From Squalus acanthias (taxonomy: Eukaryota): a DNA stretch of 64,000 nt. The DNA lies in the NCBI GenBank assembly GCA_030390025.1, contig CM059452.1, positions 8,928,001-8,992,000 of the forward strand. The letters run 5' to 3'. Below the pieces are notes generated by a model. It ran no database searches. It worked only from the letters and a program-made list of their open reading frames with translations, and was not told where the DNA came from. Made by a program: the position numbers and the translations under genes. This document shows positions 2,425 to 27,489 of this stretch, in pieces; within the stretch, counting starts at the first letter, position 1; each line of letters begins with the position of its first letter.

Positions 2425-5400
2425 GAACAATAAGAAAGAATATAAGAAATAGGAGCAGGAATAGGCCACTTGGCCCCTCGAGCCTGCTCCGTCATTCAAT
2501 AAGATCATGGCTGATCTTGGGCTCAAAGCCACTTCCCAGCCCGTTCCCCATAACCCTTCACTCCCTTATCTTGCAAAAATGTGTCTATCTCCACTTTAAA
2601 TGTATTTAATGACCCAGCCTCCACAGCTCTCTGGGGCAGAGAATTCCACAAATTTACGACCCTCTGAGAGAAGAAGTTCCTCCTCATCTCAGTTCTAAAA
2701 GGGCGACCCTTTATTCTGAAACTGTGCCCCCGAGTTCTAGATTTCCCCATGAGGGGAAACATCCTCTCTGCATCTACCTTGGCGAGCCCCCTCAGTATAT
2801 TATATGTTTCGATAAGATCACCTCACATTCAATGAATTCCAATGAATATAGGCCCAGCCTGCTCAACCTTTCCTCATAAGTCAAACCCCCCCCATCTCTG
2901 GAATTAACCTAGTGAATCGTCTCTGAACTGCCTCCAATGCAAATATATCCTTCCTTAAATAAGGAGACCAAAACTGTACGCAGTACTCAAGGTGTGGCCT
3001 CACCAATACCTTGTACAGTTGTAGCAGGACTTCCCTACTTTTATACTCCAACCCCCTTGAAATAAAGGCCAACATTCCATTTGCCTTGTTGATTACTTGC
3101 TGTACCTGCATGCTAACTTTTTGTGTTTCAAGCACAAGGACCACCAGATCCCTCTGAACTGTAGCATTTTGTAATCTCTCTCCATTTAAATAATAGTTTG
3201 CTTTATTATTTTTCCTGCCAAAGTGGATAACCTCGCACTTTCCCACATTATACTCCATCTGCCAAATGTTTGCCCACTCACCTAGCCTGTCTATATCGCT
3301 TTGCAGATTCTTTGAGTCCACTGCACAACTTGCTTTCCCACCCATCTTTGTATCATCCGAAAACCTGGCTACATTATACTCGATCCCTTCATCCAAGTCA
3401 TTAATGTAGATTGTAAATAGTTGGGGCCCCAGCACCGATCCTTGTGGCACCCCACTAGTTACCGTTTGCCAACCGGAAAATGACCCATTTATCCCGACTC
3501 TCTGCTTCCTGTTAGTTAGCCAATTCTCTATACATGCTAATATATTACCCCCAACTCCGTGAGCTCTTATCTTATGCAGCAACCTTTTATGTGGCACCTT
3601 ATCGAATGCCTTCTGGAAATCCAAATACACCACATCCACTGGCTGACCCTTGTCCACCCTACTTGTTACATCCTCAAAGAACTCCAGCAAGTTTGTTAAA
3701 CATGATTTCCCTTTCTTAAAACCATGCTGACTCTGTTTGAATGCAGTATGTTTTTCTAAATTCCCTGCTAATGCTTCCTTAATGAAGGACTCCAGCATTT
3801 TTCCAACGTCAGGTGTTAGGCCAACTGGTCTATAGTTTCCTGCTTTCTGTCTCCCTCCTTTCTTAAATACGGGTGTTACATTAGTGGTTTTCCAATCCGC
3901 TGGGACCTCTCCAGAGTCCAGGGAATTTTGGTATATTGCAACCAATGCATCCACTATCTCTGCAGCCACTTCTTTTTGGGATGCAGGCCATCTGGTCCAG
4001 GGGACTTATCATCTTTTAGTCCCATTATTTTACCGAGTACTATTTCCTTAGTGATAGTGATTTTCTTTAGTTCCCCACTCCCTGTGGCCCCTTGATTAAC
4101 CATTATTGGGATGTTGTTAGTGTCTACTACTGTGAAGACAGATGCAAAATATTTGTTCAGAGTTTCTGCGATTTCCCCGTTCCCCATTATTAATTCCTCA
4201 GTTTCATCCTCTAAGGGACCAACGTTTACTTTAGCTACCCTCTTCCTCTTTACATACCTGTAGAAGCTCTTACTATCTGTTTTAATGTTCCTTGCCAGCT
4301 TTCTCTCATAATTCATCTTCTCTCTCTTTATTATTTTTTTAGTCATCCTCTGCTGGTTTTTAAATATTTCCCAATCCTCTGTTCTCCCACCAATCTTGTC
4401 AACATTGTATACCTTCGTTTTCAATTTGATACCATCCTTTACTTCCTTAGTTAGCCACGGATGGTGCTCCCTTCTCTTAAAATCTTTCTTTCTCACTGGA
4501 ATATATTTTTGTTGAGAGTTATGAAATATCTCCTTAAATGTCCGCCACTGCATTTCAACTTTCTTACACTTTAATTGGTTTTTCCAGTCCACTTTAGCCA
4601 GTTCTGCCCTCATGCCATTATAATTGTCTTTGTTTAAGATCAGGACACTGGTTTGCGATACAACTTTCTCACCCTCCAACTGAATTTGAAATTTAACCCT
4701 GCTATGATCACTCTTTCCTAGAGGATCCTTTACTATGAGATCGTTTATTAATTCTGTCTCATTACACAGTACCAGATCTAAGATAGCCTGCTCCCTGGTT
4801 GGTTCCATTACATACTGTTCCAGGAAAACATCCCGGATGCACTCTATGAACTCTTCCTCTAGGCTACCACGGCCAATTTGTTTTGTTCAATTAATATGGA
4901 GATTAAAATCACCCATGATTATTACCATACCTTTTTTGCAGGCCTCCATTATTTGTTGATTTATACTCTGTCCAACAGTATTGCTACTGTTGGGGGGCCA
5001 GTAGACTACGTCCACCAGAGACTTTTTCCCCTTATTATTTTTATCTCCACCCAAACCGACTCTACATCTTGATCTTCTGAGCCATAATCACTTCTCTCCA
5101 CTGCACTGATCCCATCTTTTACCAACAAAGCCACCCCACCTCCCTTTCCTTTCTTTCTATCCTTCCGAATTATCTTATACCCTGGAATATTCAGTTCCCA
5201 GCCCTGGTCACCTTGCAACCACGTCTCAGTAATGGCGATCAGATCATACCCATTTGTATCTTATTTGTGCCGTCAACTCATTTATCTTGTAACAATGCTG
5301 CGTGCATTCAGATATAGAGCTTTTAACTTTATCTTTTTATCATTTTTTCTTGTTTTGGCCTTTTTTTCTGTTACACTCTTATTTTTAAACATTCTGTCCC

Positions 5401-6049
5401 TTCCTGTCACACTCTGGTTATTATTTCCCCTATCTCTAGCCTGCTCTATTCCAATCTCATTTCTCATTGACTTTTTATTTTACCACTCACCTGGATCCTC
5501 CCCCCACCACCCCAGCCGCCCACTATTTAGTTTAAAGCCCTCTCGACAGCCCTAGTTATTCGATGTGCCAGGACTCTAGCCCCAGCATGGTTCAAGTGAA
5601 GCCCGTTCAAACGGAACAGCTCCCTCTTATCCCAGTACTGGTGCCAATGCCCCACAAATCGAAACCCATTTCTCCTACACCAGTCTTTGAGCCACTCGTT
5701 CATTTCTCTGATCTTATTTACCCTATGCAAATTCGCTCGTGGCTCAGGTAGTAATCCTGAGATTATTACCTTTGTGGTTCTGCTTTTTAATTTAGCCCCT
5801 AGCTGCTCATACACTCTCAGCAGAACCTCTTTATTTTTCCTACCTATGTCATTGGTAACTATGTGGACCATGACGACTGGATCTTCCCCTTCCCACTCCA
5901 AGTTTCTCTCCAGTGGGGATGTCCTTTACCCTGGCACCGGGCAGGCAACACAGCCTTCGGGACTCACGCTCTCGGCTGCAGAGAACAGTATCTATCCCCC
6001 TCACTATACTGTCCCCAATCACTACAACATTTATTTTTCCTCCCCCACT
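2425..6049 (-). mobile_element. CR1 LINE, near full length (ORF1 esterase part, APE endonuclease, RT), frameshifted
   Basis: ORFs 5527-5901 (SGNH esterase-like), 5282-5467/5006-5218/3954-4808 (endonuclease), 2881-3969 ([23 protein letters not shown]); CR1 3' tail. Confidence 0.93.
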
Positions 6050-6730
6050 ACCTGAAGGTAGTAGGACAGGTAGATAAGGTGGTTAAGAAGGCACACAGGA
6101 TACTTTTCTTTAGTAGCCGAGGCATGGAATATATGACCAGGGTGGTTTTGCTAGAACTGTATAAAACTCTAGTTAGGTTGCAGCTAGAATACTGCGTGCA
6201 GTTCTGGTCACCACATTACAGGAAAGATGTGGTTGCACTAGAGGGGGTGCAGAGGAGATTTACGAGGATGTTGCCAGGACTGGAGAATTTTAGCTCTGAG
6301 GATAGATTGGATAGGCTGGGGTTGTTTTCTTTGGTACAGATGAGGCTGAGGGGAGACCGAATTGAGGTGTATAAATTATGAGGAGCCTTGATAGAGTCAA
6401 TAGGAAGGAACTATTTCCCTTAGCAGAGACGTCAATAACCAGAGGGCATAGATTTGGTCGAAGAATTAGAGGGGAGTTGAGGAGAATTTTTTTCACCCAG
6501 AGGGTGGTGGGGGTTTTGAACTCACTGCCTGAAAGGGTGGTACAGGCAGAAACCCACAGGACTTTTAAAAAGTACTTGGATATGCACTTGAAGTGCCGTA
6601 ACCTACTGGGCTACGGACCAAGTGCTGGAAAGGGGGATTAGGCTGGATAGCTCTTTTTCGGCAGGCACAGACACGATGGACGCAATGGCTTCTTCTGTAC
6701 TGTAAATTTCTATGATTATATGATTCTATG
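6050..6730 (+). mobile_element. CR1 LINE 3' fragment whose upstream part lies at ~2340-2421 (host of the nested insertion)
   Basis: RLQLEYCVQFWSPHY...RGDRIEVYK; ATTCTATG-type tail; reading continues from GDLGVQVH at 2400-2421. Confidence 0.85.
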
Positions 6731-7321
6731 ACAACAAGACATAATTTTCATCACCTCTATTAAATCAACCTTTAACTTTCTCTGCTCTAAGTAGAAAAAT
6801 CTCAGTTTCTCTCGTCTCCACATAACTGAAAAACCTCATCCCTGGTAGAATTCTAAAAAACCTGCTCTGCACCATCTCCAAGACCTTGACATACTTCCTA
6901 ATGTCTGGATTGAAATAAATTTAATCTTTATTGCTCCTTTAGATTAGTTATAAGGACACATGCTCTCTTAAAATTGGACTGAGCATTAATCTGAGTATTA
7001 TGAATTATTAATTGATGACAATGATTTGACTTGTTCTGACAGTGCAGACGTCTGTGCTCAGCAACATCTGCCTCTGCGAGATTCATCTTTCAACAAGATC
7101 ATTATCGCCACCTGCTGATGATGAACATCTACTGCAGGCGCCAGAGTTTCCTTTTAAACATGATTCAGAATTCCACAGACAACAACTTGCACTGACCCAG
7201 TGACGCTCACCCAGTTTCTCAGAACAAACCACAAGAGGGCTGAGATGAATTCAGGGAGGAAGGACCAAAATTACTGCTTTAAATTCTGAGGAGCTTTTCA
7301 TGGGAAGGTGTGAAGTTATAT

Positions 7322-9228
7322 AAGAACATAAGAATTAGGAGCAGGAGTAGGCCGTACGGCCCCTCGAGCCTGCTCCGCCGTTCAATAAGATCATGGCTGA
7401 TCATCGACCTCAACTCCACTTTCCCACCCGATCCCCATATTTCGTGAGTCTCCTAGAGTCCAACAATCTATCTATCTCAGCCTTGAATATACTCAACGAC
7501 TCAGCATTTGAAGCCCTTTGGGGCAGAGAATTCCAAAGATTCGCAACCCTCTGAGTGAAGCAATTCCTCCTCATCTCAGTCTTAAATGGCTGACCCCTCA
7601 TCCTGAGACTATGCCCCCTAGTTCTAGACACTCCAGCCAGGGGAAACAGCCTCTTAGCATCCACCCTGTCAATCCCCCTCAGAATCTTATATGTTTCAAT
7701 GAGATCACCTCTCATTCTTCTAAACTCCAGAGACTATAGGCCCAATCTACTCAAACTCTCCTCATAGGACAATCCCCCATCCCAGGAATCAATCTAGTGA
7801 ACCTTCGTTGCACCGCCTGTAAGGCAAGTATATCCTGCCTCAGATAAGGAGACCAAAACTGTGCAATGTACTCCAGGTGTGGTCTCACCAAAGCCCTGTA
7901 AAATTGTATTAAGACTTCCTTACTCTTGACTCCAATAGCTTTGCAATAACGGCCAACATTTCATTTGCCTTCCTATTTGCTTGCTGTGCCAGTATGCTAA
8001 CTTTTTGTGTTTCCTGAACGAGGACACCTAAATCTCCCTGATCACCAACATTTAGTGGTTGCTCACCATTTAAAATATTCTGCTTTTCTATTCTTCCTAC
8101 CAAAGTGAATAACCTCCCAGTTCCCCACATTGTACTCCATCTGCCAGCTCATTTCCCACTCACTTATCCTGTCTATATCCCTTTGCAGGCAATTTGTGCC
8201 CTCCTCACAGCTTACTTTCCGAGCTGGCTTTGTATCGTCAGAAAACTTGATACATTACACTCGGTCCCTTCAGCTAAGTCATTAATATAGATTGTAATTA
8301 GCTGAGGCCCAAGCACTGATCATTGCGGTACCCATTTGTTGCAGCCTGCCAATCCGAAAATTACATGTTTATCCCTACTCTCTGTTTTCTGTCCGTTAAC
8401 CAATCCTCTATCCATGCTAATACGTTACCCCCAACCCCATGAGCCCTTACGTTAAGAAACAACCTTTTTATGTGGCACCTTATCGAATGCCTTTTGGAAA
8501 TCCAAATATACTACATGCACTGGTTCCCCTTTATCTACCCTGCTAGTTGCATCCTTAGAAACTCCAATAAATTTGTTAAACATGATTTCGCTTTCATAAA
8601 ACCGTGTGGACTCTGCCTAATCATATTACGATTTTATCAGTGCCCTGTTACCACTTCCTTAATAATGGATTCCAGCATTTTCCCGACGACTGATGTCAGG
8701 CTAACTGGCCTGTAGCTGCCTGTTTTCTTTCTCCCTCCTTTCTTGAATAGCAGGGTCACATTTGCTACCTTCTAATCCACTGGGAACGTTCTAGAATCTA
8801 CGAAATTTGGAAGATCACAAACAATGCATCCACTATCTCTTCAGCCACCTCTTTTAGGACTCTCGGATGTAGGTCGTCAGGTCCAGGGTATTTGTCGGTT
8901 TTTAGTCCTATTAGTTTCTCAAGTACTTTTTCTCTACTGATATTAATTACTTTAAGTTCCTCACTCTTATTAGCCCCTTGATTCCCCAGTATTTTTGGCA
9001 TGCTTTTTGTGTCTTCTATTGTGAAGACAGATACAAAATATGTGTTTAAAGTCTCTGCCATTTCCTTATCCCTCATTATAATTTCACCAGTCTCAACCTC
9101 TAAGGGACCAACGCTTACTGTTGCTTCTCTCCCCCTTTTAGCATACTTGCAGAAGCTCTTACAATCTGTTTTTATATTTGTTGCTAGTTTATTCTCCTAT
9201 TCTATTTTCTCCCTTTTTATCAATTTTT
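7322..9228 (-). mobile_element. CR1 LINE, 5'-truncated and degenerate
   Basis: RT fragments (PGPDDLHPRVLKE, MRGDLIETYKIL) and a CR1 3' UTR. Confidence 0.9.
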
Positions 9229-9449
9229 TGGAAGAAGCTGGCAATGAAGAAGGGAAATGCAACTGCAAAACCCACACACCTCCTCTAATGATGGAGGAGG
9301 TTCCGATGCATCTGAGATTCTTGTGGGCAGCTGCACATGTGCATCATTCTTACGCCGGGTTGAAACTTGCTGCAAGGAAGAGCGCACGGAAACCGCCCAC
9401 ATTTCAAAAGCATTTTAAACGCACAATTGCAACTCCGAGACCGACTTTC

Positions 9450-9640
9450 CATTGTTACATATGTTTATATTACACCAGAAAGGATCTACTGCAGTATTAA
9501 ATGAGACAGGGTCTAGTGTATTATAAAAGGTGACATGGCCTACTGCAGCAATTATTGAGACAGGGACTATTGTAATATAAGCAGAGATAGGGTCTAGTGT
9601 AGTGCATTGATAACTGAGAGAGGGCCGAGTGTATTCGAAC
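9450..9640 (-). repeat. Degenerate copies of the 27-bp satellite
   Basis: GAGACAGGGTCTAGTGTA units, reverse complement of the array at 1-1243. Confidence 0.7.
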
Positions 9641-9711
9641 AGAACAGATGAAAAGTCTGTGTGTCAGTAGGTCCCAACCTCTCAGAATATTTTCCACTGT
9701 TTGTGTTCTCT

Positions 9712-9866
9712 GATGTGTCAGATATTCCTCAGGCTCTGGGAATCATTCCCAGGGTTTCTGCTCTCCGCTGTGTCAGATATTCCTCAGGCTCTGAGAATCA
9801 TTCCCAGGGTTTGTGCTCTCTGGTGTGTCAGATATTCCCCAGCCTCTGGGAATCATTCCCAGGGTT
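9712..9866 (+). repeat. 54-bp tandem repeat, about 3 copies
   Basis: GTGTCAGATATTCCTCAGGCTCTGGGAATCATTCCCAGGGTT repeated at 54-nt spacing. Confidence 0.85.
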
Positions 9867-11224
9867 ATCAAGTGATTTGAAATGAACCTCCATATAACCA
9901 ATGGGGTTGTGTTTTAGCAGTATGTGTATATTATTGTTGGGCAGGTTTGTGTACAAACAGGTTCCATTCATAATAGGTGGGTTGTAGTTGGCTTTCTATC
10001 TCTGATCAGCGGGCTGGAAACAGCTCGTTGATTTTTCTGCACAGAACCAGCAGATGTTTCCTGTAAGTTACATTGTGAGTTCTCGCCCCTCCCTGAGGGG
10101 GAAATGATTGATTTCTCTCACAAACGGTGTGGGAGAGATATGGACTGAGTGTGGGTGGGAGCAAAGTGGAATTTAACTCTTCAACTACTGAATGATTAGA
10201 CAACGTCCATCGAAAATATATTTCTTATGGCATGACCATAAAAATATGACGTTTCGTGTATGACATGTGCAGAACTGAATACAATGCGATTAGAGCAATG
10301 AAAGCGTTTGAGACATTCATCAATAAATGACAATTCTCCTCTAATTGAAGGCGACGTTGTATTACAATCCTGCAGAAGGCAAGGGAAGCTGTGCTGGAAT
10401 CACATAAACAAAGACAGGCACAGATATAAAGAACCGATATAACAGTTCTTGGTTCCATTGGTAATTTTGTCCTTGACCCCATGACCTGCAGTCTGCCGAT
10501 TTATTGTCCCAGTGATGGAGCCTCTGACCGGGAATTCTAGTTACTCACTGAGCTTTTGGTCTAATTGTCATTGACAGCCTTTATATTTTAAAATGAAACA
10601 CGCTCCGGTCCAGCTGTGAGAGACGTGCATTTGGCATCAGAACAGCTGGCCACAGCTGGGTTAAGGTCAGCACTGAATCAAACCGCACGATGGTGACACT
10701 CAATTAAAGCATTTAATTTAATGAGTTTCCTTTCCTGGTGCAAATTAAAAATGTTACCTAAAACTAATAATATCCCAAATCTATTGCTGTAATTGTTCCT
10801 TTAATCGGTTCACACTGGTAGATACTGTTTAATCTACAGTGTTGAGGACATTTCCATGGTCGGTGGGACAGTAATGTAACTGCGATTAGAAAGGCAGGCA
10901 GCGTGATTGAATTCTCACCCAGACAGCTTGGGGCGGACCGTGCAGTCTCCTCACACCCACACAGATCGGTGTAGATCTTAACTTTTACAACTTAGAATTG
11001 TTCAGAGTAAAATGAAGTGACAGTTTTCACACAGGTGAACGGAGATCCAGTGCCCGATTGAGGCAGGGATGATTGTATTAAGTGCGGAGCTGCGCAGGCG
11101 CGATGGATGCGATCTGACAACATGTGACGTTATTCCCAAACTTCGCTTTCCCTCCTGTAGAACCGGGACAAATATCAACTCTTGTGTCCTTTTCCCTTCC
11201 ATCCCACATGCAGTTGCCGATCGG

Positions 11225-11505
11225 AAAAAGAAAGACTTGCATTTTTCCAGCGCCTGTCCCGACATCAGGATGCCCCAAAGCGCTTCACAGCCAATGATGT
11301 ATTTTGAAATGTAATCACTGTTATAACCTCGGGAAACGCGGCAACCAATTTGCGCACAGCACGATCCAACTAACAGCAATGTGATAAATGACCAAATAAT
11401 CAGTTTTAGTGATGTTGGTTGAAGGATAAACATTGGCCAAACACCGGGGAGAATTCCCCCGCTCTTGGAAATAATGTCATGGGATCTTTTACGTCCACCT
11501 GGGAG
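11225..11505 (-). mobile_element. DeuSINE/SacSINE1-like SINE fragment
   Basis: AAGAAAGACTTGCATTT...CCCAAAGCGCTT.ACAGCCAATGA, homologous to the longer copy at 45365-45815. Confidence 0.7.
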
Positions 11506-11810
11506 GAATTGGACATTGAGTAAATGTGGGCTGTTTGTGGGGAATGTAAATCCTCACAGTGATTCAATTTTATACTAAATATGTTTTGGTTCGACCGTAT
11601 ATAATCCCCAACAGTAAATCGGCGATCAAAGTCAAGGTAATTTTGGGGAATGGACACAGAACACGGATTATTAATGGTTAATTATATTTTACACAGCTGG
11701 TCTCAGACAGGAAACAGAGGAGGAGTCAGGCTGCTGCTGGGGGAGGCGTGTAACTCCCAGTCCCCAGCTCACCCTCTCTCTCTCACACACACACACAGGG
11801 CTCCAGCCAG

Positions 11811-11818
11811 TTTAAATA
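11811..11818 (+). promoter_or_regulatory. Candidate TATA-like element of the VH promoter
   Basis: TTTAAATA about 100 nt upstream of the leader ATG; no ATGCAAAT octamer nearby, in line with shark IgH promoters. Confidence 0.45.
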
Positions 11819-11909
11819 GCGGGACGGTTCAGCTCTAAGTTCACAATCAGGAGGCGTTGTTGCGGCGCCGAGACACGTTCCCGAGTCAGTTACACCGAGA
11901 GACCGAACG

Positions 11910-11955
11910 ATGGGACTTGCCCCGTGCCTCTGTTTGTTACTGGTTTGCTTCGCCT
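11910..11955 (+). CDS. IGHV: IgH leader exon (MGLAPCLCLLLVCFA)
   Basis: ATG at 11910, 15 hydrophobic codons plus 1 nt, then GTGAGT donor (phase 1); splices in frame to the VDJ exon giving ...FA-YVRS|DIVLTQ. Confidence 0.93.
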
Positions 11956-12075
11956 GTGAGTATTCCTCGCTGCTTTAGTGACACGATAGAAGCCAGCTTC
12001 AGATATTGTGTTTTACTTCTATTCATTGATGTGAATGTTATCCAATGTAATTTAATTTTTTTCATTCACTGACAG

Positions 12076-12435
12076 ATGTCCGGTCCGATATCGTGCTGAC
12101 CCAGTCGGCTTCTGCGTCGAAGAAGTCCGGAGAATCTCACAAATTGTCCTGTTCAGTGAGCGGGTTCAATCTGGACAGCTACCACATGCACTGGATTAAA
12201 CAAGTTTCCGGGAAGGGGCTGGAGTGGCTGCTTGCTTCCAGAAAGCCGTCGGAAACCAAACTTTACGCGCCTGGAGTCGAAGGTCGGATCATCCCTTCAA
12301 AAGACTCTTCCGCAACCTATATCGAGATCAATGATCTGAGAATCGAAGACACCGCCATGTATTACTGTGCAAGAACAGTTACTGGGTGGGCCATGGACTT
12401 CTGGGGACAAGGCACCATGGTGACGGTGACTGGAG
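12076..12435 (+). CDS. IGHV: Pre-joined IgH VDJ exon; V is IgW/omega-like
   Basis: CAG acceptor 12073-12075; DIVLTQ...C...W..Q..GKGLEW...EDTAMYYCAR-TVTGWAMDF-WGQGTMVTVTG in one frame; G|GTAAG donor; no heptamer/nonamer between V and J. Confidence 0.96.
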
Positions 12436-15400
12436 GTAAGAAACATTCACTCTTTCAGTAACTGTTGTATTTGTGTCTTTGTTTTATATTTCTGTTTATT
12501 TCAATAATTCATTCATTCACTGAAACTTGGGTTCGGTGGAGTCTGTATTGAGATTTTTTGCAATGTTCCATTTGATTCTGCTGCAAAGGAATAATAGATT
12601 TAAACAGTTTCTTCAGAAAAAAATTGTTTTTGAGGGATTGAGCCCCCTATTGATGTGATTTGGTGTTTATCTGCTAAGGAGACTGTGTGTCTGAGTTACT
12701 TTAAATACCCAACGGCTGTTGAACTGTTTTGCGTTTCTACAATGTTTAATCTCGGTGACATCCAATGGTTGCAGGTTTTCTGACCAAATTTAGACATTGT
12801 GTTTAAATGTGTTTGAAATAAGATTGTAGGCAAAAAACAGAAAGCTTTAGTGCTCAATAAAAACCTTAAGATATTTAATGTATTTTTGTTTCTGATATTT
12901 ACATTGTCATCTATTAATCTAATGTTCACCAACTAATTTTCAATACAATGTTACTGTAATTAATAACTAAATAATTAACAATTGTTAGCCTGAATCAGTT
13001 TAAGTTAAATTCAATTAAATCATTATAATGTAGTAATATCACCCAATATTACAACAATATGCTATATTAATATTAATTTATTAAGCATATTCACAATTCT
13101 GCTGTCATTATTTTATATTTTTGTTTATTTCAATAATTAATTCGTTCAGTGATAGATGGGTTCGCGGGGTTCTGTATTGAGATTTTTTTGCAATGTTACA
13201 TTTGATTCTGCTGAAAGGGTTTATAGAATGAAGCTGCTTCTCCGGAAAGCGCTCTGTTGCGGGATTGAGCCCCTCAGTGATGTGATTTGCTGTTTATCTG
13301 CTGAGGAGAGTGTGTGCCTGGGTTACTTTGAATAACTAAAGTTTGTGAAACTGTTTGGCGTTTCTGCAATGTTTAATCTCGGTGACATCGAACTGCTGCA
13401 GGTTTTCTGATCTGTTTAAAACTGTTTGAAAGTTGATTGTAGGCAGACAACAAGTAGGTTTTATAAATCAAAAAGCATTTTAAAATAATTTAAAGCATGT
13501 TTTTATTTAAGTGAGAATTACAGATTCAACTATTAATCTATGGTTTACGGTGCTCACATTTAATAGGTGAAATGTTACTGAAATTACGAATTATATAATT
13601 AACAATTTGTAGGTTGAAGGAGAGTTAAATTAATATAACTCAAACGATTAGAATGCGGTAATATCGCCCAATATCACTCAATATGCTGTAGTAATAATAT
13701 TAATGTATTAAACATTATTCACCTTCCACAATTCTGCTGTGCACTGGTCACAATTAACGTGAGCGGAACATTTTAGAGGCTGGAGACAATTTCTGATTAT
13801 GTCTGAAATTATTTTAATAACAGCAGACTGATTCCACCGCAGTGTTCAGTTTAATGAGGGGTTTGAAATTAATTGTTATCTCCCTGTTTTACACAGATGA
13901 ATGACAGATTGTATTTAATTATGCATTAAATGCGAGTATAAATTGCAGTTTATAAATGTAATAAATCTGCCGGTTTATTAAATTCTTACTGTGCAGCGGA
14001 AACCATGTTATTCCTTCAATATTATTTGTTGTATGATAGCGAGACAATAATCACTAAACTAATCTTAAACAGTTTGTAAGATCTCAGGCTGAGCGGTCGC
14101 TGGCAGTCAAAGAATTGTTCATATAATTCTATTTAAATTCAAGGAAGGTGCAGACTGCGTAAGGCTGGAGACAGACAAATAACCCATTGACATTCAAGCA
14201 GATGACTTTAATTACAAAAGGTTAATATTAGTTTTGAATTTAATAACAACATCGTGTCTCCCATTGCTGTGCTGTATACGGGATAGAATTATAGACAGTG
14301 AACAGATTACATCTGAGAGTTATATTTAATTCTCATTAATGTTAAATTGATCAACAAAATCTCTCCTCCATTTGCTCATTAAATTACAGTGCCGCAGATG
14401 GTCTGATTGATTAGCTCTCCGCCAGTTTTACACTGATCATTTTGGAACTGATTTTCAATGAATAGCAGAATATATTTAATAATTAATTTACGGGCATTGT
14501 GTGAATTACGGGAGTAAAGTATAAAAAAATTGTTTGTGTTATTAAATAGCGGAGTCTCTGTTACTGACTGCAAACTGGCCGGTTGTCTTTTAATTCACGA
14601 AAATAGTATTTGTAGTTAAGATTGAGGACAATGTTTAAACTCGAGAGCCCTGCTTTAGTAAACACACGGTGTTACACTCAATCGGTAGTTAGTGAGCTGT
14701 GACCACGGCCAGACTTTGAACTATTTAAAATAGTCCACTCCTAAATCCATCATGTGAAATCCACTCTGAGAAAAGATGGAGTTTATGTTGTATCAGAGAG
14801 TTCAGAAACATGCAGAGTTTACAAGTGTGTAGATAGAGAGCGGGAATGTATTAGAAGTTAGTGACCATTTTAACTTACTCAAAAGTGATTTGATTTAAAT
14901 AAAAATAATATATTTGTCTGAATGTCTTTAATCTATTAATATGATTTTTAATATTTTAATATTGATAAGTGTCATGTTAATTTAATTGAAACCCTATAAG
15001 TTCACAAGTTACCAGGCAGAAACAGGATTAAAATTAATATCAACTAATTTTAATATAGTGCAGCTAACATCAATATTAACTTAGAATATAATATGAGTGC
15101 GAATTTATTAAACATAAATGATCTCCCACAATTGCGTTGTATACTGGACAGGATTACAGTTACTGCAAAATCTCAAGGGTTGGGGAGAATTTTAAATTAC
15201 GTCTAAAATTAATTTAGAAACAATACATGTCTTACTCAGCTGTGCTCAGCTCGAGAAGGTGTCGCCGCAGATTTTAATGAATTAACTTCGTGTTTTGCCT
15301 CGATGATTTTACCGGTTATAATTAATTGTGAAATTATATTTACCCAGTGGTTCCTAGTTCGTTAAATTCTTACTCTGTCACGGAGTCCCTGTTATATGCA

Positions 15401-15884
15401 GCAAATTACCCTGGAATGTGAATTATTTCAGTAAACTCGTTTTCAGGGAAGCTAAATCTTATTTGTTTGTAAGATTGTAGACAGGGAGGGAGAAATGATT
15501 GGAAGTCGAAGAACTTTTTCCAAATTAATATCAGTTTAATTTCAGAAAACGTTCAGACTTGAGGTGGTCGGAAATTGACAAGGGATCAATTAGAAATCAG
15601 CTTCATTGAAATTGACAGATTGAACAGATCTATCTGCTGAGAGCACGATTGTTGCACCGTTTGTGTCTGTTCTGTTTCTGTGCGCCTGCTCACTGTGTGA
15701 GAATCAGGAGTCTGCCTGACTGCTTGTAAACCTGCTGGTTTGTTCTCTTGTGTTTCATGGAGTACAATTCGACTCAGTTATTTCAGAAGTTTGTATCTGT
15801 GAGAAATGCGATAGTTTGACTTTAAGTTTGAGGAGGCGTCTCAGTAACCCAGTTTGTGACATTCAGAAGGAGCATTTCAGAAAC

Positions 15885-16830
15885 ACTTCTGGCAGACTGT
15901 AGAAGGAGCTTTAATCAGTTTCTAACTCGTGCCGTACCTGCCCTGGGAGTGTTTGATGGGACAGTGTAGAAGGAGCTTTAATCAGTTTCTAACTCGTGCC
16001 GTACCTGCCCTGCGAGTGTTTGATGGGACAGTGTAGAGGGAGCTTTACTCTGTATCTAACCCGTGCTGTACCTGCCCTGGGAGTGTTGGATGGGACAGTG
16101 TAGAGGGAGCTTTACTCTGTATCTAACCCGTGCTGTACCTGCCCTGGGAGTGTTTGATGGGACAGTGTAGAGGGAGCTTTACTCTGTATCTAACCCGTGC
16201 TGTACCTGCCCTGGGAGTGTTTGATGGGACAGTGTAGAGGGAGCTTTACTCTGTATCTAACCCGTGCAGTACCTGCCCTGCGAGTGTTTGATGGGACAGT
16301 TAAGAGGGAGCACAACACCAGGTTATAGTCCAACAGTTTTATTTGAAATCACAAGCTTTCGGAGCTATCGATTTGCTCCTTCCTCAGGTGAAGTAAATTG
16401 GATACCTGTAACCTGTAACCTGTACTGTACCTGCCCTGGGGGTGTTTGATGGGACAGTGTACACGGATCTTTACTCTGTATCTAACCCATACTGTACCTG
16501 CCCTGGGATTGTTTGATGGGACAGTGTAGACGGAGCTTTTCTCTGTATCTAACCCGTGCTGTTATGCCCCGTGAATCTTTGATGTTCCAGTGTAGAGTGA
16601 GAAGTTACTCTGTATCTAGCCCGTGTTGTACCTGCCCTGGGAGTGTTTGATTTTGCAATGTAGTTGGAGCTTTACTCTCTATTTAACCAATGCGGTATTT
16701 TACCCGGAGCGTTTGACAGTGCTGTGCAGACTTGGCGTTGCTCGAAATCATTCCCTTCCTATACCTTTCGGTTCAGCGCATAGCAGGACAGTGCAGAGGG
16801 AGCCTTACTCTATATTATCTGTACTGTAAC
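15885..16830 (+). repeat. 67-bp tandem repeat in the JH-CH1 intron
   Basis: Unit GTACCTGCCCTGGGAGTGTTTGATGGGACAGTGTAGAGGGAGCTTTACTCTGTATCTAACCCGTGCT; starts at 15934, 16001, 16068, 16135; interrupted at ~16300-16410. Confidence 0.93.
16349..16391 (-). ncRNA. Minimal type I hammerhead ribozyme motif (Penelope-LTR derived)
   Basis: Minus strand TCAC-CTGAGGA-AGGAGC-loop-GCTCC-GAAA-GC-TT-GTGA: catalytic core, stem II, palindromic AAGCTT stem III, stem I. Confidence 0.7.
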
Positions 16831-17577
16831 AGATCTGTGAGTGCTTTGTTCCGTGTTGTTCAAGGAACCTTAATGTGCATCCAACTAATAAAGTGTGAGT
16901 TCTCCAGCCAGATATATAAAAATAAATGTTTCCATTGCTCCGATGAAACAACCGCGCATTAATTGAGTTTAACCTCATTGCAAATAAAACTGCCCATTTT
17001 TTAAATTAATTATTAAACTTTAAACATTTTGAGCATCAGATAATGATTGAATGAGATTGGCCTGATCCTGAGCTCACTTTCAAAACAAACAGTTTCAGGA
17101 AGTGACGGTAACGCTCCAGAAAGCAGCGCCTGTTCTGATCTGATGGGAGGCTGGAAGTTATTTTGAGAATTTAAATGGAGAATGTCGAGACTCCCGCTCC
17201 AAATAACCATCCTGGGAACCTTATGCTTGAAAGAATTATTTCATTCAATTGTTTTTTTAAAAAGGGACCAGGCAGCGACAAACTCGGGTGAGGTGCAGCT
17301 ATTGGACTGGGTCACAGCACAAGGCTCACAGTCACTGAGCCGCACCTCTGCGAAACATTTAAAGAGAAACAGTCAGCCTGCGATGAGTCGTCATTCACAA
17401 TAAACTTTAAGACTCTGTTACGGTATCCGATTGAATCATTTGTGTCAAATTCCTCAGTTCTTTCATTTTAAACATCCTCTTGCATAACAAACAATAAGAT
17501 ATATCTGATAGAGGTGTTTAACATTATGAAGCGTTTCCTTTCTGTTACTCGGGAAGAACTAATTCCGCTGAGCCGTG

Positions 17578-18245
17578 TAGAATCACAGAATCTCAGAGCA
17601 CAGAAGGGGCCATTCGGTCCGTCTTGCCTGTGCTGGCTCTAAAGGAGCTGTCCAATCACGTCCCAGCTTTTTCCTCGTAACCCTACAAATGAGTCCTCTT
17701 CAAGAACATGTCCAGTTGCCTCGTGCATTCCAGAACTGAACAACCCTCTGTTTGAAAAACAATTCTCCTGATGTCCCCTCTAGATATTTTGCCAATTATT
17801 TTAAATCAGTGACCTTTGGTTACCGACCTACTCGCCAGAGGAAACCGTGTCTCCCGGTTTGCTCTGACAAAACCTCTCTCAATTTTGAACACCTCTATTA
17901 GGTCTCCCCTTAACCTTCTCTGCTCCAAAGAACAATCCCAGCTTATCCAATCTCTCTGCATAACTGAAGTCTCTCATCCCTGGTATCCTCCTGGTCAACC
18001 TCCTCTGTATCCTCTCCAAGGCCTTGTCATCCTTCCTAAATTGTGGTGTCAGAATTGAATACACTACTTCATCTGATTCCTAACCAGTGACTGGTAATGG
18101 TTTAGCAGGAATTCCTTGTTTTTGTATTTAATGCCCTTTTTACAATGGCAAGTATCCCACACACTTCCGTAACCGCCTGATCAACTTGCCCTGCCACCTT
18201 CACAGATTTGTGAATAAGCTCCCCAGGTCCCTCTGCTCTTGCATT
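17578..18245 (-). mobile_element. Degenerate CR1 3' fragment
   Basis: ALERIQRRLTRRIPGMRDFSYAERLDKLGLF and a CR1-type 3' end. Confidence 0.8.
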
Positions 18246-19091
18246 CCCCACAAACCAGAAGCCAGAGTTGCCCATATCAGCAGTCAGCACATTAGTTATT
18301 GTTTGTCCTTCCTTGCATAGAACCCGCTGATATCCAATCGATTTATAATGTTTAAGGATTGCCAATATTAGATAATTAGAGAAGAAACCTGTCGCGATGT
18401 TTAGATTATTTTCGGTACAAACAGCAACAAGATCTGACTGTAACGACCCAGAAAGCAGCGCCTGTTCTCATTGGTGGGATGTTGGAAAGTAATTTGGAAA
18501 ATGAAATGGAGCATTTAAAGAGCATCGTTCCATATAACCGGCTTTGGGAATTGTATTTAATTCGGATTATTTAATTGAGTGATTGGGAGGAGGGAAGTCA
18601 GGAGACGACCATTCAGTAGCATGGGATAGAGCACAATGGAGAGATGACAACACTTTGATATCATGGAATGGCCTGATTCTGTGCTGATAATAAGAGGCTG
18701 ACAGCAAAAGGATGTAGGGAGGAGTTCAGTGGACAGAATGTGAAAGAATCTAATGTGAAAGTGGTTGAGGAATGAGGGGTGTGTTCCATAACAGGGGATC
18801 AAGAGCTGGAGTAAGTCCACGATACAATATTCCAGCATTCACTCGGTATAAAGGGGGCTCGTGGACAGAATGCCCCTTTCAGACTCCTGACTTTTCTTAT
18901 GTACAAGACTGGAGTCACATGAAGGCGTTTCACGTCGGGTCTCACAACTCACAGAAACTCAAATGCTGATCTGGGTTTTGATCGGCAAATGGTGGAATTA
19001 GTTCATCCTGTCGTCACAGTTCGAGTTGTTTGGTTATGTTATAAGCACGGATTACAGAGTCTAACTTGTTCAATGGGCCATTCTTTCCCAG

Positions 19092-19391
19092 CGACACAGT
19101 CTCCTCCCACCCTCTACGCCCTGCTCTCCTCCTGTGAACAACCCAACACCAGCGGCCCCGTCACGTACGGCTGTTTGGCGATGGACTACTTCCCGGAAAT
19201 CACCAGCCTTTCCTGGAGTAAAGATAAAGAGCCGATCACCACTGGATTGAAGACCTACCCGTCAGTGTTCAACAAGAAGGGAACCTACACCCTGAACAGC
19301 CATTTAACCATCACCGAGTCCGAGGTGGGGAGCAGCACAATCTACTGCCAGGTTCGACAAAGTGGGTCGGACTGGAGCGTCGAAATGCCAG
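19092..19391 (+). CDS. IGHM: IgM constant exon CH1
   Basis: [17 protein letters not shown]...GCLAMDY...[17 protein letters not shown]...[13 protein letters not shown], closely matching shark C-mu1 as recalled; AG/GT phase-1 boundaries; Cys for light-chain linkage retained. Confidence 0.95.
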
Positions 19392-19419
19392 GTTAGTGTT
19401 GTGGGATACAGGGGGAAAC

Positions 19420-20050
19420 TGTGAAAAGCAGAGAAGTTATGTTCAACTTCTATAAAACATTCTATACAGACTTAGAGTAACGTGCACAGGTCTGATCTCC
19501 ATAATTACAGTTGGTGTACTGTCCATTGTTTTGGTTTCCATGTAATAAGAATGATACAGAGGCACTGGAGAAGTGGAAAAAAGATTTACAAGGACGATAC
19601 CAGAACTGAAAAATTGTAACTGTCAAGAATGATTGAACGGGCTTGGGATCTTTTCTCTGGTAAAGAGAAGGCTGAGGAGTGACCGAGTAGACGTCTTTAA
19701 AATCATGAAGGGGTTTGAGAGGTTAGATGTAGAGACAATATTTCTGCTTGAGGAGGAACCCGATACTAGGGATCATAAATATAAGATAATCACTAATAAA
19801 TCCAATGGGGAATTCAGGAGAAACTTCTTTACCCAGAGAATGGGTAGAATGTGGAACTCGCCACCACATGGAGTAGTTGAGGCGAACAGCATAGATGCGT
19901 TTCAGGGGAATCTAGATAAGTACAGGAGGGAGAAAGGAATAGAAGGTTATGTTGATGGGGAGATGAAGTAGGAAGAGAGGAGTCTCATGTGGAGCATAAA
20001 CACCGACCTGTTGGGCCGATTGGCCTGTTTCTGTGTTGTAGATTCTATGT
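19420..20050 (+). mobile_element. CR1 3' fragment in the CH1-CH2 intron
   Basis: LGIFSLVKRRLRSD...RRNFFTQR..RMWNS; tail GTAGATTCTATGT. Confidence 0.85.
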
Positions 20051-20122
20051 AAAAAACCGCTTAACAGTTCTTAATTGTTTGGATTACAACAAATAATCCC
20101 TATAAAATGTATTTTCTTGCAG

Positions 20123-20434
20123 ATCGTGTGGTACATCATCCAACTGTGATCCTCACCCTGAGTTCCAGTGAAGAAATCATCAGCAGCAGGTCTTCAACCG
20201 CCGTGTGTTCAATCATCGATTTCCGTCCAAAGTCACTGACGGTGAATTGGCTGAAGAATGGACAGCTCATGGATTCGGGTTACGTCACCTCTCCCGTCTG
20301 TGAAGTGAACGGGAACTTCTCGGCGACCAGTCGGCTGACATTCCCCGCCGGGGAATGGTTCGCCGGCTCGGTCTATACCTGCCAGGTCTCTCATCAAGGG
20401 GCCACCCAAATCCGAAACATCACCAGATCTCCGG
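20123..20434 (+). CDS. IGHM: IgM constant exon CH2
   Basis: [14 protein letters not shown]...CSIIDF...W...[18 protein letters not shown]...YTCQVSHQ; AG/GTAAG phase-1 boundaries. Confidence 0.95.
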
Positions 20435-20494
20435 GTAAGAGACACAATCCCGAGCAGTTCCAGATCATTGTGAGCGCCAATCTCAGTCAGGAGT

Positions 20495-21105
20495 CATAGA
20501 GTCATAACGGCACAGAAGGAGGCCATTCGGCCCATCGTGTCCGTGCCGGCTCTCTGAAGAGCAATCCAGTCAGTCCCATTCCCCCGCTCTTTCCTCATAG
20601 CCCTGCAAGTTTATTTCCCTCAAGTGCCTATCCGGTCTCCCCTTGAAAACATTGAGTGTCTCCGGTTCCACCACTTTCGTCGGCAACGAATTCCAGGTCA
20701 TCACCACTCTCTGCGTAAAAAAGGTTTCCCTCACATCCCCCCTGTATCTCTTGCACAAAACCTTAAATATGTGTCCCCTAGTCCTTGTACCATCAACTAG
20801 TGGGAACAGCCTTTCCCCGTCTAGCCTGTCCAAACCCGTCAAAATCTTTGACACCTCTATCAAATCACCCCTCAACCTCCTTTGCTCTAATGAAAACAAA
20901 TCCAGCTTCTCCAACCTGCACTTTTAGCTTAGATCCCCCATACCCGGAACCATTCTGCTAAATCTCCTCTGCACCCTCTCAAATTCCTTGACATCCTTCC
21001 TAAAATGTGGTGACCACAACTGGATGCAATACTCCAATTGTGGCCTAACCAGTGCTTTATAAAGGTTCAGCATAACTTCTCTACTTTTGTACTCAATACC
21101 TCTAT
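20495..21105 (-). mobile_element. CR1 3' fragment in the CH2-CH3 intron
   Basis: LDLFSLEQRRLRGDLIEV...FFTQRVVMTWNSLP. Confidence 0.88.
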
Positions 21106-21399
21106 TGTTTTATTGGACTTTTATTGGAATTAGTAAAAAGCACAGATCTATTTCTAATTTCCAATCATACAGTTTATGTTTCCTTCCGATGTCAGTGCTG
21201 GCTCAGGGTTCCTCACGGTTCAGGATTCCAGCACTTCACCAAAGGGTTTCCTCAGCTGTGATGTCAGAGAGTGCATGAGGTGTCATTAGTCTCAGGTTTA
21301 TCCTGAGTTGGCTGATCATATTCGGAGCGACAGTCGGTGTCTGGAACCCTTTACTGGTAACTGTCTCGGGACCCACAGCTAGAAAGGACATCTGCCCTA

Positions 21400-21942
21400 T
21401 TTAGAGAACAGCGTTCAATTCTGGGCACCGCCAATCAGGATGGATATATTGGCTTTAGAGGGTGCAACGCAAATTCACCCGAATCATACCGGGGCTGAAA
21501 GGGTTAAATTATGAGGACAGGTTGCATAGAATAGGCTTGTATTCCTCTGAGTATAGAAGATTAAGAGGTGATCTAATTGAGGTGTTTAAGTTGATAAATG
21601 GAATTGATAGGGGAGATAGAGACAAACTATTTCCTCTGGTGCGCGAGTCCAGAACAAGGGGCATAACCTTCAAATTAGAACTCAGCCGTTCAGGGGTGAT
21701 GTCAGGAAGCACTTCTTCACACAAAGGACAGTGGAAATCTGGAACTCTCTCCCCCCAAATGCTGTTGAGGCTGGGGGTCAAGTGAAAATTTCAAAACTGA
21801 GATTGATAGATTTTTGGTAGGCAAGGGTATCAAGGGTTACAAAAAGAAGGCCGTTAGATGGTGTTCAGTTGACGATCAGCCATGATCTCATTGAATGGCG
21901 GAACAGGCTGGGTGAGCTGAATGGCCTCCTCCTGTTCCTCTG
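21400..21942 (+). mobile_element. CR1 3' fragment in the CH2-CH3 intron
   Basis: QRKFTRIIPGLKGLNYEDRL...RRLRGDLIEVFK; 3' UTR GAATGGCCTCCTCCTGTTCCT. Confidence 0.88.
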
Positions 21943-22645
21943 TTGCTATTACTGCCCTGCGGTCATATTTCCTTCTGACGCTCTCTCACCAGACATGAGA
22001 AATGCTCACTAATGACAGAAATGAACAAACTACTTCACATCGGCATTACACATTATTCACCACCACAAAAGACCCCTTGGAACTCCATTCTCCCGACCTT
22101 TCACTTCTCCTCTGACGGGGCCTGCAATGCTTCTTGCACATTTTCATCGCCCCCAAAATCGCAACAAGACAACAGAAAATTAACTTTGCTTCCTGTTGCA
22201 CCTAAAATCCTGAACTTCATGTGAAACTCGGTTTGAACCAGTGTAATTTTCGTGTAGAGCTCTTGACCCTGGGGGCGGAACCATTATAATGAGCGGGAAT
22301 GCGTTCGGGCACATGGATCTGTAGACGGGCGTAAAGGAGCAAGGTATTTCAGGAAGAGCGCTATTCAGTGCATAACACAATTGCGCCCGAATTTTTTTTT
22401 TTTTACGCCGGGTATTTGCTTCACAGCCCATTACAGGAGGCTCTGGGAGCAAATACACAGGAAATGTTAAAGAGTCTCCCGGAATCGTTGTCAATTCGTT
22501 GTCCTTCCAATAACGATGGTGTTCAAGCAACAGCGCGAGGTTGATGTCTCAAAGGTGATTTATTCTCCCTGAGAGAGTGAAGACTTAATACTGGTGTTCT
22601 GATTCTGAAGATGAAGCTTTGCTTGACTTTCATTTCTGTTCACAG

Positions 22646-22954
22646 ATGGTTCCTCATGCAGCGATTCAGAAATCACTCTTCCGCAACCGTCACTAGAACA
22701 GGTCTTACTGGAGGCGACGGTGACCTTAACCTGCGTCGTGTCTAATGCTCCTTATGGAGTCAACGTGTCCTGGATCCGAGAAAAGGAGACTTTGAAATCA
22801 GAGATTGCCGTCCAACCCGGAGAGGCTCCCAACAGCGTGATCAGCAACTTAAACATCTCGACACAAGCCTGGCTGAGCGGGGATGAGTTCTACTGCGTGG
22901 TGAGCCATCAGGATATGCCGACTCCTATAAGAGATTCCATCCACAAGGAAAAAG
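22646..22954 (+). CDS. IGHM: IgM constant exon CH3
   Basis: [43 protein letters not shown]...[13 protein letters not shown]; CACAG acceptor, G|GTGAG donor. Confidence 0.95.
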
Positions 22955-23468
22955 GTGAGCGGTGAGATTGTAGCAATTAGTGAGACATTGTGACTATTTC
23001 CTGTGCTTGTGCACGGGCCAATTCATACTATTCAGTGTTTTGATGGACTGCTCGATAATTCAATGGGTAATTCCACGAACTAAACCCTCTGGGACCAGAG
23101 ATGCATTGAGGGGGAAGCTAGATAAGTAAATGAGGGAAAAAGGAATAGAAGGATATGTTATTTGGGTTAGATGAAGTAAGGTGGGAGGAGTCTCGTGTGG
23201 ATCATAAACAGCGGCATTGACGAGTTGGGCCGAATGGTCTGTTTCTATCATGTAAATTCTATTTAATTTTCCAGTCCAACTCTTCAAGTTCCCAGAGAGA
23301 AGCATTGCATCTACCTCTGCTCCGGGCTGGAAAACCGGACAGGACACAGAGGGGAAAAGGGAATCCTTTAAAATTCAGCGCAAAGCACATTTCTCTCACA
23401 TCTAACCGCCGGTTTCATTGTCTCTGGAATTCTCCAGTTTATTGACCTTTATTGTAATTGTTCTGCAG

Positions 23469-23860
23469 CTAAAGATCCGCGGGAACCGTCCGTGTCTGTC
23501 CTCCTGCCCCCGGCAGAAGAAGTCTCCGCTCAGAGGTTCGTCAGCCTCACCTGCTTAGTGAGAGGTTTCTCCCCCCGAGAGATCTTCGTCAAGTGGACCG
23601 TCAATGACAAGCCGGTGAATTCCGGCAACTACAAGAACACCGAGGTGATGGCGGAGAACGGCAGCAGTTCATTCTTCATGTACAGTCTGTTATCCATTGC
23701 AGCGGAGGAGTGGGCCAGCGGCGCTTCTTACTCCTGTGTGGTGGGACATGAAGCGCTCCCCTTGAAGATCATCAACAGAACGGTTAATAAATCCAGCGGT
23801 AAACCCAGTTTTGTGGACATTTCCCGTGTTCTGATGGACACCGTCAATTCTTGTCAATGA
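23469..23860 (+). CDS. IGHM: IgM CH4 plus secretory tailpiece
   Basis: [15 protein letters not shown]...[17 protein letters not shown]...[11 protein letters not shown]...[24 protein letters not shown]; penultimate Cys; internal G|GTAAA donor at 23798/23799 for the membrane form. Confidence 0.96.
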
Positions 23861-23888
23861 GAATCTCTCGATTGCATTTCAGTTCTTG

Positions 23889-23904
23889 AATAAAAACCAA
23901 TAAA
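23889..23904 (+). terminator. Secretory-form polyadenylation signals
   Basis: Two AATAAA hexamers (23889, 23899) about 30-40 nt after the tailpiece stop. Confidence 0.8.
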
Positions 23905-24294
23905 GGCCTTTTCTTCCAATCGTCAGTTAAACACACAGCCGCTCAATTAATTTTGTTTCCCATTTTTGCCAAGGGGAGGGCCGTTTATCTGAAGCAGTAT
24001 ATTTTCCGGTCTCGGGGCCAAGGCTTGTACAGCCAGCGCTCCCAGCTCAGATACACCACGGGTTAGAGACAGGCTGAAACTCTTTCATGACAGGATTCCT
24101 CAAAGTCAATTCAGCAACTTTCCTCCCGCTGGGGGGAATCTGAAAAGTTCCCATTTCAGACAAACAAACGCAGCACATTTAGATCTCGGTGTCATGTTGT
24201 CGTATTGTCCATCCCTTCAGGAATGGGGACAGTTACATTTTGCAGCATCGCACCCTCTGGGATCTGAAATGAGGACCACACACGAACACGAATT

Positions 24295-26432: not shown

Positions 26433-26434
26433 GA

Positions 26435-27114
26435 TCATTTTCAGATTGGAAAGCTGTAACTAGTGGGGTGCCACAGGAATCAATGCTGGCGCCTCAATTA
26501 TTTACAAACTATATTAATGACTTGGATGAAGGGACCGAGTGTACTGTTGCCAAATTTGCTGACGATACAAAGATAGGTGGGAAAGCAAGTTGTGAGGAGT
26601 ACTCAAAGAGTCTGCAAAGGTATAAAGACAGATTAAGTGAGAGTGCAAAAATTTGGCAGATGGAGTATAATGTGGGAAAATGTGAGGTTATCCACTTTGG
26701 TAGGAAGAATAAAAAAGCAAAATATTATTTAAATGGAGAGAGACTACAGAATGCTGCGGTACAGAGGGACCTGGGGGTTCTCGTACATGAAACACAATAA
26801 GTTAGCATGCAGGTACAGCAAGTAATTAGAAAGGCAAATTGAATATTGGCCTTTATTGCAAGGGGGATGGAGTATAAAAGTAGTGAATTCTTGCTACATG
26901 TGTACAGGGCGTTCGTGAGACCACACCTGGAGTACTGCGTACAGTTTTGGTCTCCTTATTTAAGGAAGGATATATTTGCATTGGAGGCAGTTCAGAGAAG
27001 GTACCCTAGGTTAATTCCTGAGTTGAAGGGGTTGTCTTATGAGGAAACGTTGAGCAGGTTGGGCCTATACTCATTGGAGTTTCGACGAATGAGAGGTTAT
27101 CGCATTGAAACATA
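26435..27114 (+). mobile_element. CR1 RT fragment
   Basis: PQ.S.L.PQLF..YINDLD...KFADDTKIGG...RPHLEYCVQFWSP. Confidence 0.9.
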
Positions 27115-27489
27115 ACATAACCCACTGTACGTCCCACACCCAACCAGAGAGGGGAGGTGAACCAATCTCTATTTTATGAACTCAGTTGCCATCAGTAAAA
27201 AGTCAGCTTCTAACTCACTGTCCGACTTGCCGCATGGGAAGCATATTGTAAAATAAATATTTATTCATCATATTATCTTTAACTAGTGTTTGGGGCAAAT
27301 CTGTCCCTGTTATTCGTAAACTAACAGTTTGAATTTTAATAGTCCAAATCTAAACTGGTGATTGAATCCTCTGCGGGTTTCCCACGGTTGTGTACCTGAT
27401 GGTTCTGAGTCCCATCGGTTGAAATGTTACATTCCATCGGCTGACGTCACATTGCGTCTCACAGAGAATACATTTACACAGAGCGGGGA

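Follow-up and report, generated by a model that had tools for sequence, protein, structure and literature searches.

An intact IgM minicluster of Squalus acanthias with V, D1, D2, and J segments probably fused in the germ line

An in-frame VDJ exon lying in shark genomic DNA as a single piece raises the question of whether it is an inherited gene, how its segments were joined, and whether joined shark heavy chains are selected or merely tolerated. The window analysed here is a stretch of 64,000 nt from Squalus acanthias (GCA_030390025.1, CM059452.1:8,928,001-8,992,000, forward strand), and window positions are used throughout. According to the accessible parts of the published accounts, joined, part-joined, and split IgM clusters are known from cartilaginous fish (PMC5192425, PMC4279169), and RAG joining in germ cells and neonatal expression of joined genes have been described (PMC5192425, PMC4279169, PMC2193156). 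The original prediction, which called such clusters established in this group, agrees with the first two of these sources. Germline joining in sharks is therefore long known, and the window gene belongs to this known class.

Positions 11910-28945 of the window contain an intact IgM heavy-chain gene, composed of leader, in-frame VDJ, Cmu1-4, secretory tail, and TM1/2, with all exons and splice sites intact:

11910-11955, + strand: leader exon with ATG (GT donor, open frame)
11956-12075, + strand: leader intron, kept (GT...AG)
12076-12374, + strand: VH of IgW type, 3' end shortened by 4 nt, without RSS (V-set match; alignment with split cluster L009 stops at 12374)
12375-12379, + strand: D1 remnant of 5 nt, equal by eye to the D1 core in L006, L025, and other split clusters
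12380-12389, + strand: D2 remnant, 9 nt reaching the D2 3' end, which is untrimmed, and one further base, either N or templated as in L051
12390-12435, + strand: JH of L009/L049 type, shortened by 2 nt, with Tyr>Phe and Ala>Gly common to the three assembled copies
12436-19091, + strand: J-Cmu1 intron, kept (splice sites; absent from the spliced contig 4 of run X1)
19092-19391, + strand: Cmu1 exon (C1-set match; open frame, AG/GT)
20123-20434, + strand: Cmu2 exon, intact (C1-set match; nurse shark IgM1gj is without Cmu2)
20500-21500, no strand: approximate recombination zone (500-nt bins; identity to copies C449 and C559 drops 3' of it)
22646-22954, + strand: Cmu3 exon (C1-set match, splice sites)
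23469-23860, + strand: Cmu4 with secretory tailpiece (penultimate Cys present; the membrane form has its GT donor inside the exon, after 23798)
28669-28796, + strand: TM1 exon, open frame
28937-28945, + strand: TM2 exon, Val-Lys-stop

The VDJ exon (12076-12435) reads in frame through V, CARTVTGWAMDF, and WGQGTMVTVTG. The secreted frame comprises 572 residues with no internal stop, and the membrane-form frame from the donor after 23798 was worked out arithmetically. The window Cmu4 shares 88% identity with Triakis IgM and 84% with nurse shark IgM, indicating that the window gene is an elasmobranch IgM minicluster. It has the makeup of a germline-joined one: V, D, and J are fused in genomic DNA without RSSs or intervals, the introns are kept, and Cmu1-4, the secretory tail, and the TM exons follow downstream in the single minicluster. 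No octamer is present in the 500 nt 5' of the ATG; a TATA-like word lies at 11811. A tandem repeat of about 52 nt occupies 24290-26430, between Cmu4 and TM1, and is far longer in the C449 and C559 copies. In addition, a stretch of about 600 nt that opens the J-Cmu intron occurs twice (12474-13400) and is duplicated in paralogues too.

The joined VDJ is found where the original prediction placed it: the Cys codon occupies 12366-12368, J ends at 12435, a GT donor follows at 12436, and the junction is in frame (CARTVTGWAMDFWGQG). The claim that no RSS and no free D or J lies nearby is upheld by two scans. An RSS scan (heptamer starting with CAC with at most 2 mismatches, nonamer with at most 3, at most 4 in total) gives zero matches in 4087-12688, and the weak intronic matches from 12.7 kb on adjoin no D or J. 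A landmark scan of the window locus (L001) finds no D or J RSS. The RSS scan does detect strong 23-RSSs at TCR V segments at 38-62 kb. When the window is aligned with the split paralogue L009 (95% identity over 10601-12374 and 93% from 12390 on), 1,127 nt of L009 correspond to 15 nt in the window, meaning that the RSS intervals are cleanly lost. Together with the presence of the leader and J-Cmu1 introns, this clean loss bears out the claim that joining took place at the DNA level. The intron structure also excludes a retrocopy of a rearranged transcript, to which we assign a negligible probability: every intron is in place, the gene and 1.3 kb 5' of it run collinear with split clusters, and no supporting point was found.

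Split relatives found by searching the same genome bear V-23RSS, 12-D1-22, 12-D2-12, and 23-J signals. Because split paralogues with 93-97% identity are present in the same genome, the donors of the junction can be read nearly base by base. Compared by eye with these clusters, the 15-nt junction breaks down into 5 nt from the D1 core, a single base, and the final 9 nt of D2. V is trimmed by 4 nt, J by 2 nt, and the D2 3' end not at all. The exact match of 9-10 nt ending at the D2 coding end is arithmetically far past chance; the D1 assignment depends on a 5-nt match, which alone is weak and is weaker than that of D2. The D1 and D2 remnants, proposed from likeness to the cores of shark DH1 and DH2, thus have matching donors in split clusters of this genome, and the comparison with unrearranged segments that was to assign each piece yields the D1 core, the D2 3' end, and a J of L009/L049 type. 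Base 12380 either is a single N nucleotide or has its template in the D2 allele of L051, leaving 0-1 untemplated bases, in line with the expectation of few or no N nucleotides. The N bases were read by eye at this junction and a few others, so "little TdT" applies to those joints. The window CDR3, ARTVTGWAMDF, has 11 residues. Among 12 stored nurse shark mu CDR3s the length is 10-16 residues, with a median of 13, and 3 of the 12 have 11. Therefore, of the "fixed short CDR3" put forward earlier, "fixed" holds, in that all three assembled copies are identical, and "short" is overstated, 11 residues being only modestly short.

The junction region (181 nt) is identical in the three assembled copies, on C29, C449, and C559. 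The VDJ exons of the copies differ from that of the window by 2-3 nt; in the flanks, divergence is 0.6% over 23.7 kb for C449 and about 2% for C559. The same junction inside copies that have diverged around it indicates that it does not stem from one somatic event. The other haplotype of the window gene may be represented by C449 or C559, in which case inheritance is still implied.

In addition, contig 4 of public run X1 (130 nt) matches 12344-12432 without a difference and then passes from J into Cmu1, indicating that it is spliced. At position 12433 the contig has C, as do split J segments, where all three assembled copies have G, which points to another allele or copy as its source. A near-identical V contig in the same run has the C449/C559 base at 12304, and the X1 transcript is not assignable to a single copy. 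The window gene is probably transcribed, the transcript evidence consisting of one contig from one public run, its type unrecorded, that may derive from the assembled animal. Run evidence was drawn from assembled contigs rather than raw reads, and contigs reveal presence only. They span the junction in one of seven public runs (X1, spliced) and in no DNA run; X2 (95% read), X9 (55% read), X7, X11, X6, and X16 give no contig across the junction, from which absence is not to be inferred.

If the sampled tissue contained a lymphocyte clone, its somatic rearrangement could have been assembled as germline. Shark B cells and thymocytes carry full and partial IgH rearrangements in every combination, according to the accessible text of PMC2435157, and among the runs examined no DNA run from another animal spans the junction. 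However, the same text describes somatic joints as each unique, with N/P additions, whereas the window junction is common to three copies whose flanks have diverged and whose 3' halves are of two kinds, and the X1 contig carries it with a different base at the end of J. With the junction shared by three diverged copies, we reject the somatic clone as extremely unlikely. The V, D1, D2, and J join of the window gene is most likely inherited in the germline. The part of the original prediction that placed the joining in the germline accordingly stands on the introns, the RSS loss, and the three copies, while RAG and little TdT would be its probable agents.

To place the window join among others of the genome, 56 loci were examined and nine dropped (L071 and L072 as duplicates; L013, L054, and L066-L070 as having no IgM-type V-D-J set). 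The remaining 47 IgM places include haplotype duplicates, and the searches give lower bounds. At least one joint is present in 34 of the 47: 13 places are split (L006 being counted here without its J read), 19 part-joined, and 15 fully joined. Six of six partial joining states are seen, in addition to complete joins. L060 and L057 have a D1-D2 joint in common, with J joined in L057 only; likewise, L047 and L026 share the V-D1 and D2-J joints, with D1-D2 joined in L026 only. By sequence comparison, this suggests that joining may proceed stepwise, one junction at a time over generations, although recombination between clusters could mimic both series (L060 to L057 and L047 to L026). Among the 15 complete joins, five have stops in V or the junction (L011 and L019-L022), and L026 is out of frame.

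Several of these loci have features of their own. L057 (G000:C449:750897) reads V-D1D2J, with a D2-J joint as in the window except for one extra D2 base; in the D1-D2 joint that it shares with L060, one extra base is consistent with a P nucleotide. In L049 and L050 (G000:C29:8791797 and C449:353937), a G-rich stretch resembling the D1 3' end sits at the end of V, followed by the V's own RSS, and the downstream D1 is intact; either an open-and-shut joint or conversion by a VD-joined paralogue would account for this V end. Another fully joined gene whose V is of IgW type, L005 / L103-L105 (G000:C988:405556-426200), is more divergent; its CDR3 is ATTARWGWPMDY, its sole Cmu4 has a dead tail, and its TM1 is open. 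A joined contig resembling L005 is present in run X2 of organism B, and the L005-type join may thus be older. L071 (G000:C284:800000-803500) has an IgW-type V with RSS, then a segment with a 12-RSS that runs into an IgW-like J, and is probably a part-joined IgW cluster. In L112 (G000:C130:537500-544500) and other C130 clusters, the Cmu3-Cmu4 unit is duplicated, with the tail of the inner Cmu4 dead and that of the outer one intact, suggesting a six-domain IgM.

The window V is 44-53% identical to the main mu-type V family and 65% identical to horn shark IgW W26. In a tree that does not include the IgM1gj V, it falls in a clade with W26 (support 98/84). The V is of IgW type; no IgW J or constant exons accompany it, D, J, and C being of the IgM-cluster type. 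Protein searches with the window V reveal no joined orthologue in other species, the best matches being 80% (catshark, unjoined) and about 61% (IgW). The catshark V, scyTo_0014239, lies in the same clade, and its locus tag adjoins that of a J-Cmu1-4-TM gene, scyTo_0014240, the contigs of the two being equal in length. Unlike the window V, it runs into RSS-like sequence and thus appears unjoined. An IgW-type V beside a J-Cmu-TM gene in catshark indicates that the IgW-V-on-Cmu cluster appears to predate the join. As a guess, the monotypic second VH family described for horn shark in the accessible part of PMC2191167 may correspond to the IgM cluster with IgW-type V.

As far as about 20.5 kb, identity between the window and C449/C559 is mostly 97-99.8%, and beyond this point 88-95% (500-nt bins). 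Each 3' half, that of the window and that of C449/C559, resembles unrelated clusters more closely than it resembles the other half. Two Cmu3-TM halves behind one shared junction indicate that one lineage exchanged Cmu3-TM after the join. The tails of the two halves carry different lesions. In the window, Asn is replaced by Asp (23816-23818), with loss of the glycan sequon, and Leu by Arg (23825-23827), the penultimate Cys being kept; in C449/C559, a premature stop precedes the Cys. C449 is open up to the tail, and C559 is frameshifted, broken in Cmu2 and Cmu4. The two window changes correspond to human N563 and L566 when residues are numbered backwards from the penultimate Cys. According to the accessible parts of PMC11729874, PMC8657937, and bioRxiv 2020.09.10.291138, residue L566 of human IgM lies packed within the core of the tailpiece, and assembly is assisted by the glycan at N563. 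Poor pentamer formation is therefore predicted for the window chain. By analogy with mammalian ERp44 control, this chain, which keeps its tail Cys, might be retained in the cell rather than secreted.

Constant regions across the genome were collected by Cmu4 search, with the divergent C130/C988 lineage left out of the tail count. Sequon, Leu, and Cys are kept in 37 of 41 main-lineage Cmu4 exons, and the four with lesions (window, C449, C559, and L110) are all in fully joined clusters, as assigned by position. Tail lesions affect 4/8 fully joined and 0/27 rearrangeable clusters, six with unknown V being left out (one-sided Fisher p = 0.0013). Counted as events, they affect 3/6, which gives p = 0.008 if the comparison group is assumed to hold 20 independent clusters; both p values are too small, because paralogues are not independent. 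Four fully joined clusters (L014, L015, L018, and L026) keep a normal tail. The L110 lesion sits in a frameshifted Cmu4, and thus two of the four lesions are in frameshifted genes (C559 and L110), so the tail lesions may be decay.

Such decay would fit a germline join that is functionally idle, a by-product of leaky RAG in germ cells that spread by duplication and is now decaying tail first. We regard this as a possibility to be taken seriously, albeit a minority one. Six of the 15 complete joins are defective, the C559 copy is frameshifted, and in the accessible text of PMC2193156 transcripts of horn shark joined heavy chains were not detected. On the other hand, the window copy is open throughout and C449 up to the tail, a spliced VDJ-Cmu1 contig exists in X1, and three of the six Cmu4 differences from the nearest paralogues fall within 12 nt of the tail. 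A working germline-joined gene remains the preferred reading.

Nurse shark IgM1gj dominates in neonates, occurs in serum as monomer and dimer, and is paired with a joined light chain. Like the window gene, IgM1gj (AAK07642.1) has a fully joined in-frame VDJ on Cmu and an 11-residue CDR3. The two CDR3s, ARGSTGWALDY in IgM1gj and ARTVTGWAMDF in the window, are identical at 7 of 11 positions, with TGWA in register. In contrast, the IgM1gj V is of mu type (67% identical to L025, and 50% to the window over VDJ), where the window V is of IgW type. IgM1gj has three C domains, without Cmu2, and a canonical tail, where the window has four Cmu exons and a damaged tail; the genomic Cmu2 exon is intact in both the window and C449. 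With the mu-type V, three C domains, and normal tail of IgM1gj, the window gene is not IgM1gj.

The likeness of the loops could nevertheless reflect orthology, if an ancestral D2-J join had been kept while V was later replaced and the flanks were homogenised by gene conversion. Besides the equal length and register of the two CDR3s, TGW or GWA occurs in none of 15 other stored shark mu CDR3s, a small sample, and exchange between clusters is evident in this genome. However, besides the differences in V family, Cmu2, and tail, split paralogues in the same genome are 93-97% identical to the window on either side of the junction, the D remnants match present alleles exactly, and the same D2-J joint is found again in part-joined L057. 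Orthology is therefore rejected as highly unlikely. The TGWA core follows most simply from the segments themselves, an untrimmed D2 end being joined to a J trimmed by two bases: D2 read as Tyr-Thr-Gly-Trp ends at a codon boundary, and J minus two bases continues in frame. The recurrence of the window D2-J joint in L057 fits TGWA arising by joining. TGWA is found in one of eight distinct complete joints of this genome; of 60 CDR3-like stretches taken from all of the stored proteins, the sole further one with TGW or GWA belongs to a teleost gene model. The best reading of the likeness is convergence by the joining mechanism; selection for a TGWA loop is possible.

The best explanation, in which we have fairly high confidence, is that the window holds an intact IgM minicluster whose VDDJ was fused in the germ line, likely by RAG with little or no TdT, giving one fixed heavy chain without rearrangement. 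RAG cutting in the germ cells of an ancestor, with little TdT or none, would have fused V, D1, D2, and J. The join would have arisen once, in a split cluster already bearing an IgW-type V. The joined cluster would then have duplicated, and one lineage would have swapped its Cmu3-TM half with that of another cluster. Each half would have acquired a separate tailpiece lesion, Asn>Asp with Leu>Arg in the window and the premature stop in C449/C559. The predicted role of the chain is chiefly that of a membrane receptor or of an antibody that does not form pentamers, probably in early life; the chain would resemble IgM1gj while having a separate origin.

A bolder reading, which we consider unlikely, is that two shark lineages independently fixed an 11-residue TGWA loop on unrelated V families by selection for an inherited innate-like antibody or pre-B-type receptor, and that the tail was then lost twice here to give a membrane or monomeric receptor. 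If the CDR3 likeness and the repeated tail loss do reflect selection, the locus would exemplify, in directly testable form, the twofold evolution of an invariant receptor from a rearranging system. In the literature searched, several primary shark papers excepted, neither this junction nor loss of the tail in joined clusters is mentioned. Within that limit on novelty, the IgW-type V, the IgM1gj-like CDR3, and the separately damaged tails on two constant halves were not found in it.

The window also contains, at 38480-61560, twelve V segments of TCR alpha/delta type with 23-spacer RSSs on both strands (V-set match in 11 of 11 scanned). The best single-domain matches in the PDB to the one that was searched are TCR alpha chains. 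The segment at 38.5 kb contains a stop, and 38.4-41.0 kb is an inverted copy of 59.2-61.6 kb with 80-89% identity. Elsewhere, at G000:C911:373000-519400, about 30 Ig-like V segments lie in tandem with a spacing of about 4 kb, and the one read has a 23-RSS. We take these to be possibly TCR-delta-associated Ig-like V segments.

The IgM gene and TCR V array of the window are consistent with the IgH-TCR alpha/delta complex described in the accessible part of PMC12227049. Among known systems, the germline-joined IgM clusters of horn shark and skate (VD-J, VD-DJ, and VDJ), as described in the accessible parts of PMC5192425, PMC4279169, and PMC2193156, have the same V-D1-D2-J-Cmu minicluster with RSS intervals lost. 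In the same accounts, those genomes, like this one, hold split, part-joined, and joined clusters side by side. Unlike in those clusters, the donors of the window junction are readable almost per base and its V is of IgW type; the heavy-chain joints in PMC2193156 are characterised, in the part accessible, as too varied to dissect. Joined heavy chains of horn shark gave no detected transcripts in that text, whereas the window gene has a spliced contig. The same text reports little sign of TdT in germline-joined light chains. The NS4 (kappa) light chains of nurse shark, as presented there, resemble the window gene in that joined and split genes are close, N nucleotides are few or absent, and the RSSs are excised. 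NS4 is a light chain with one junction, whereas the window gene has three.
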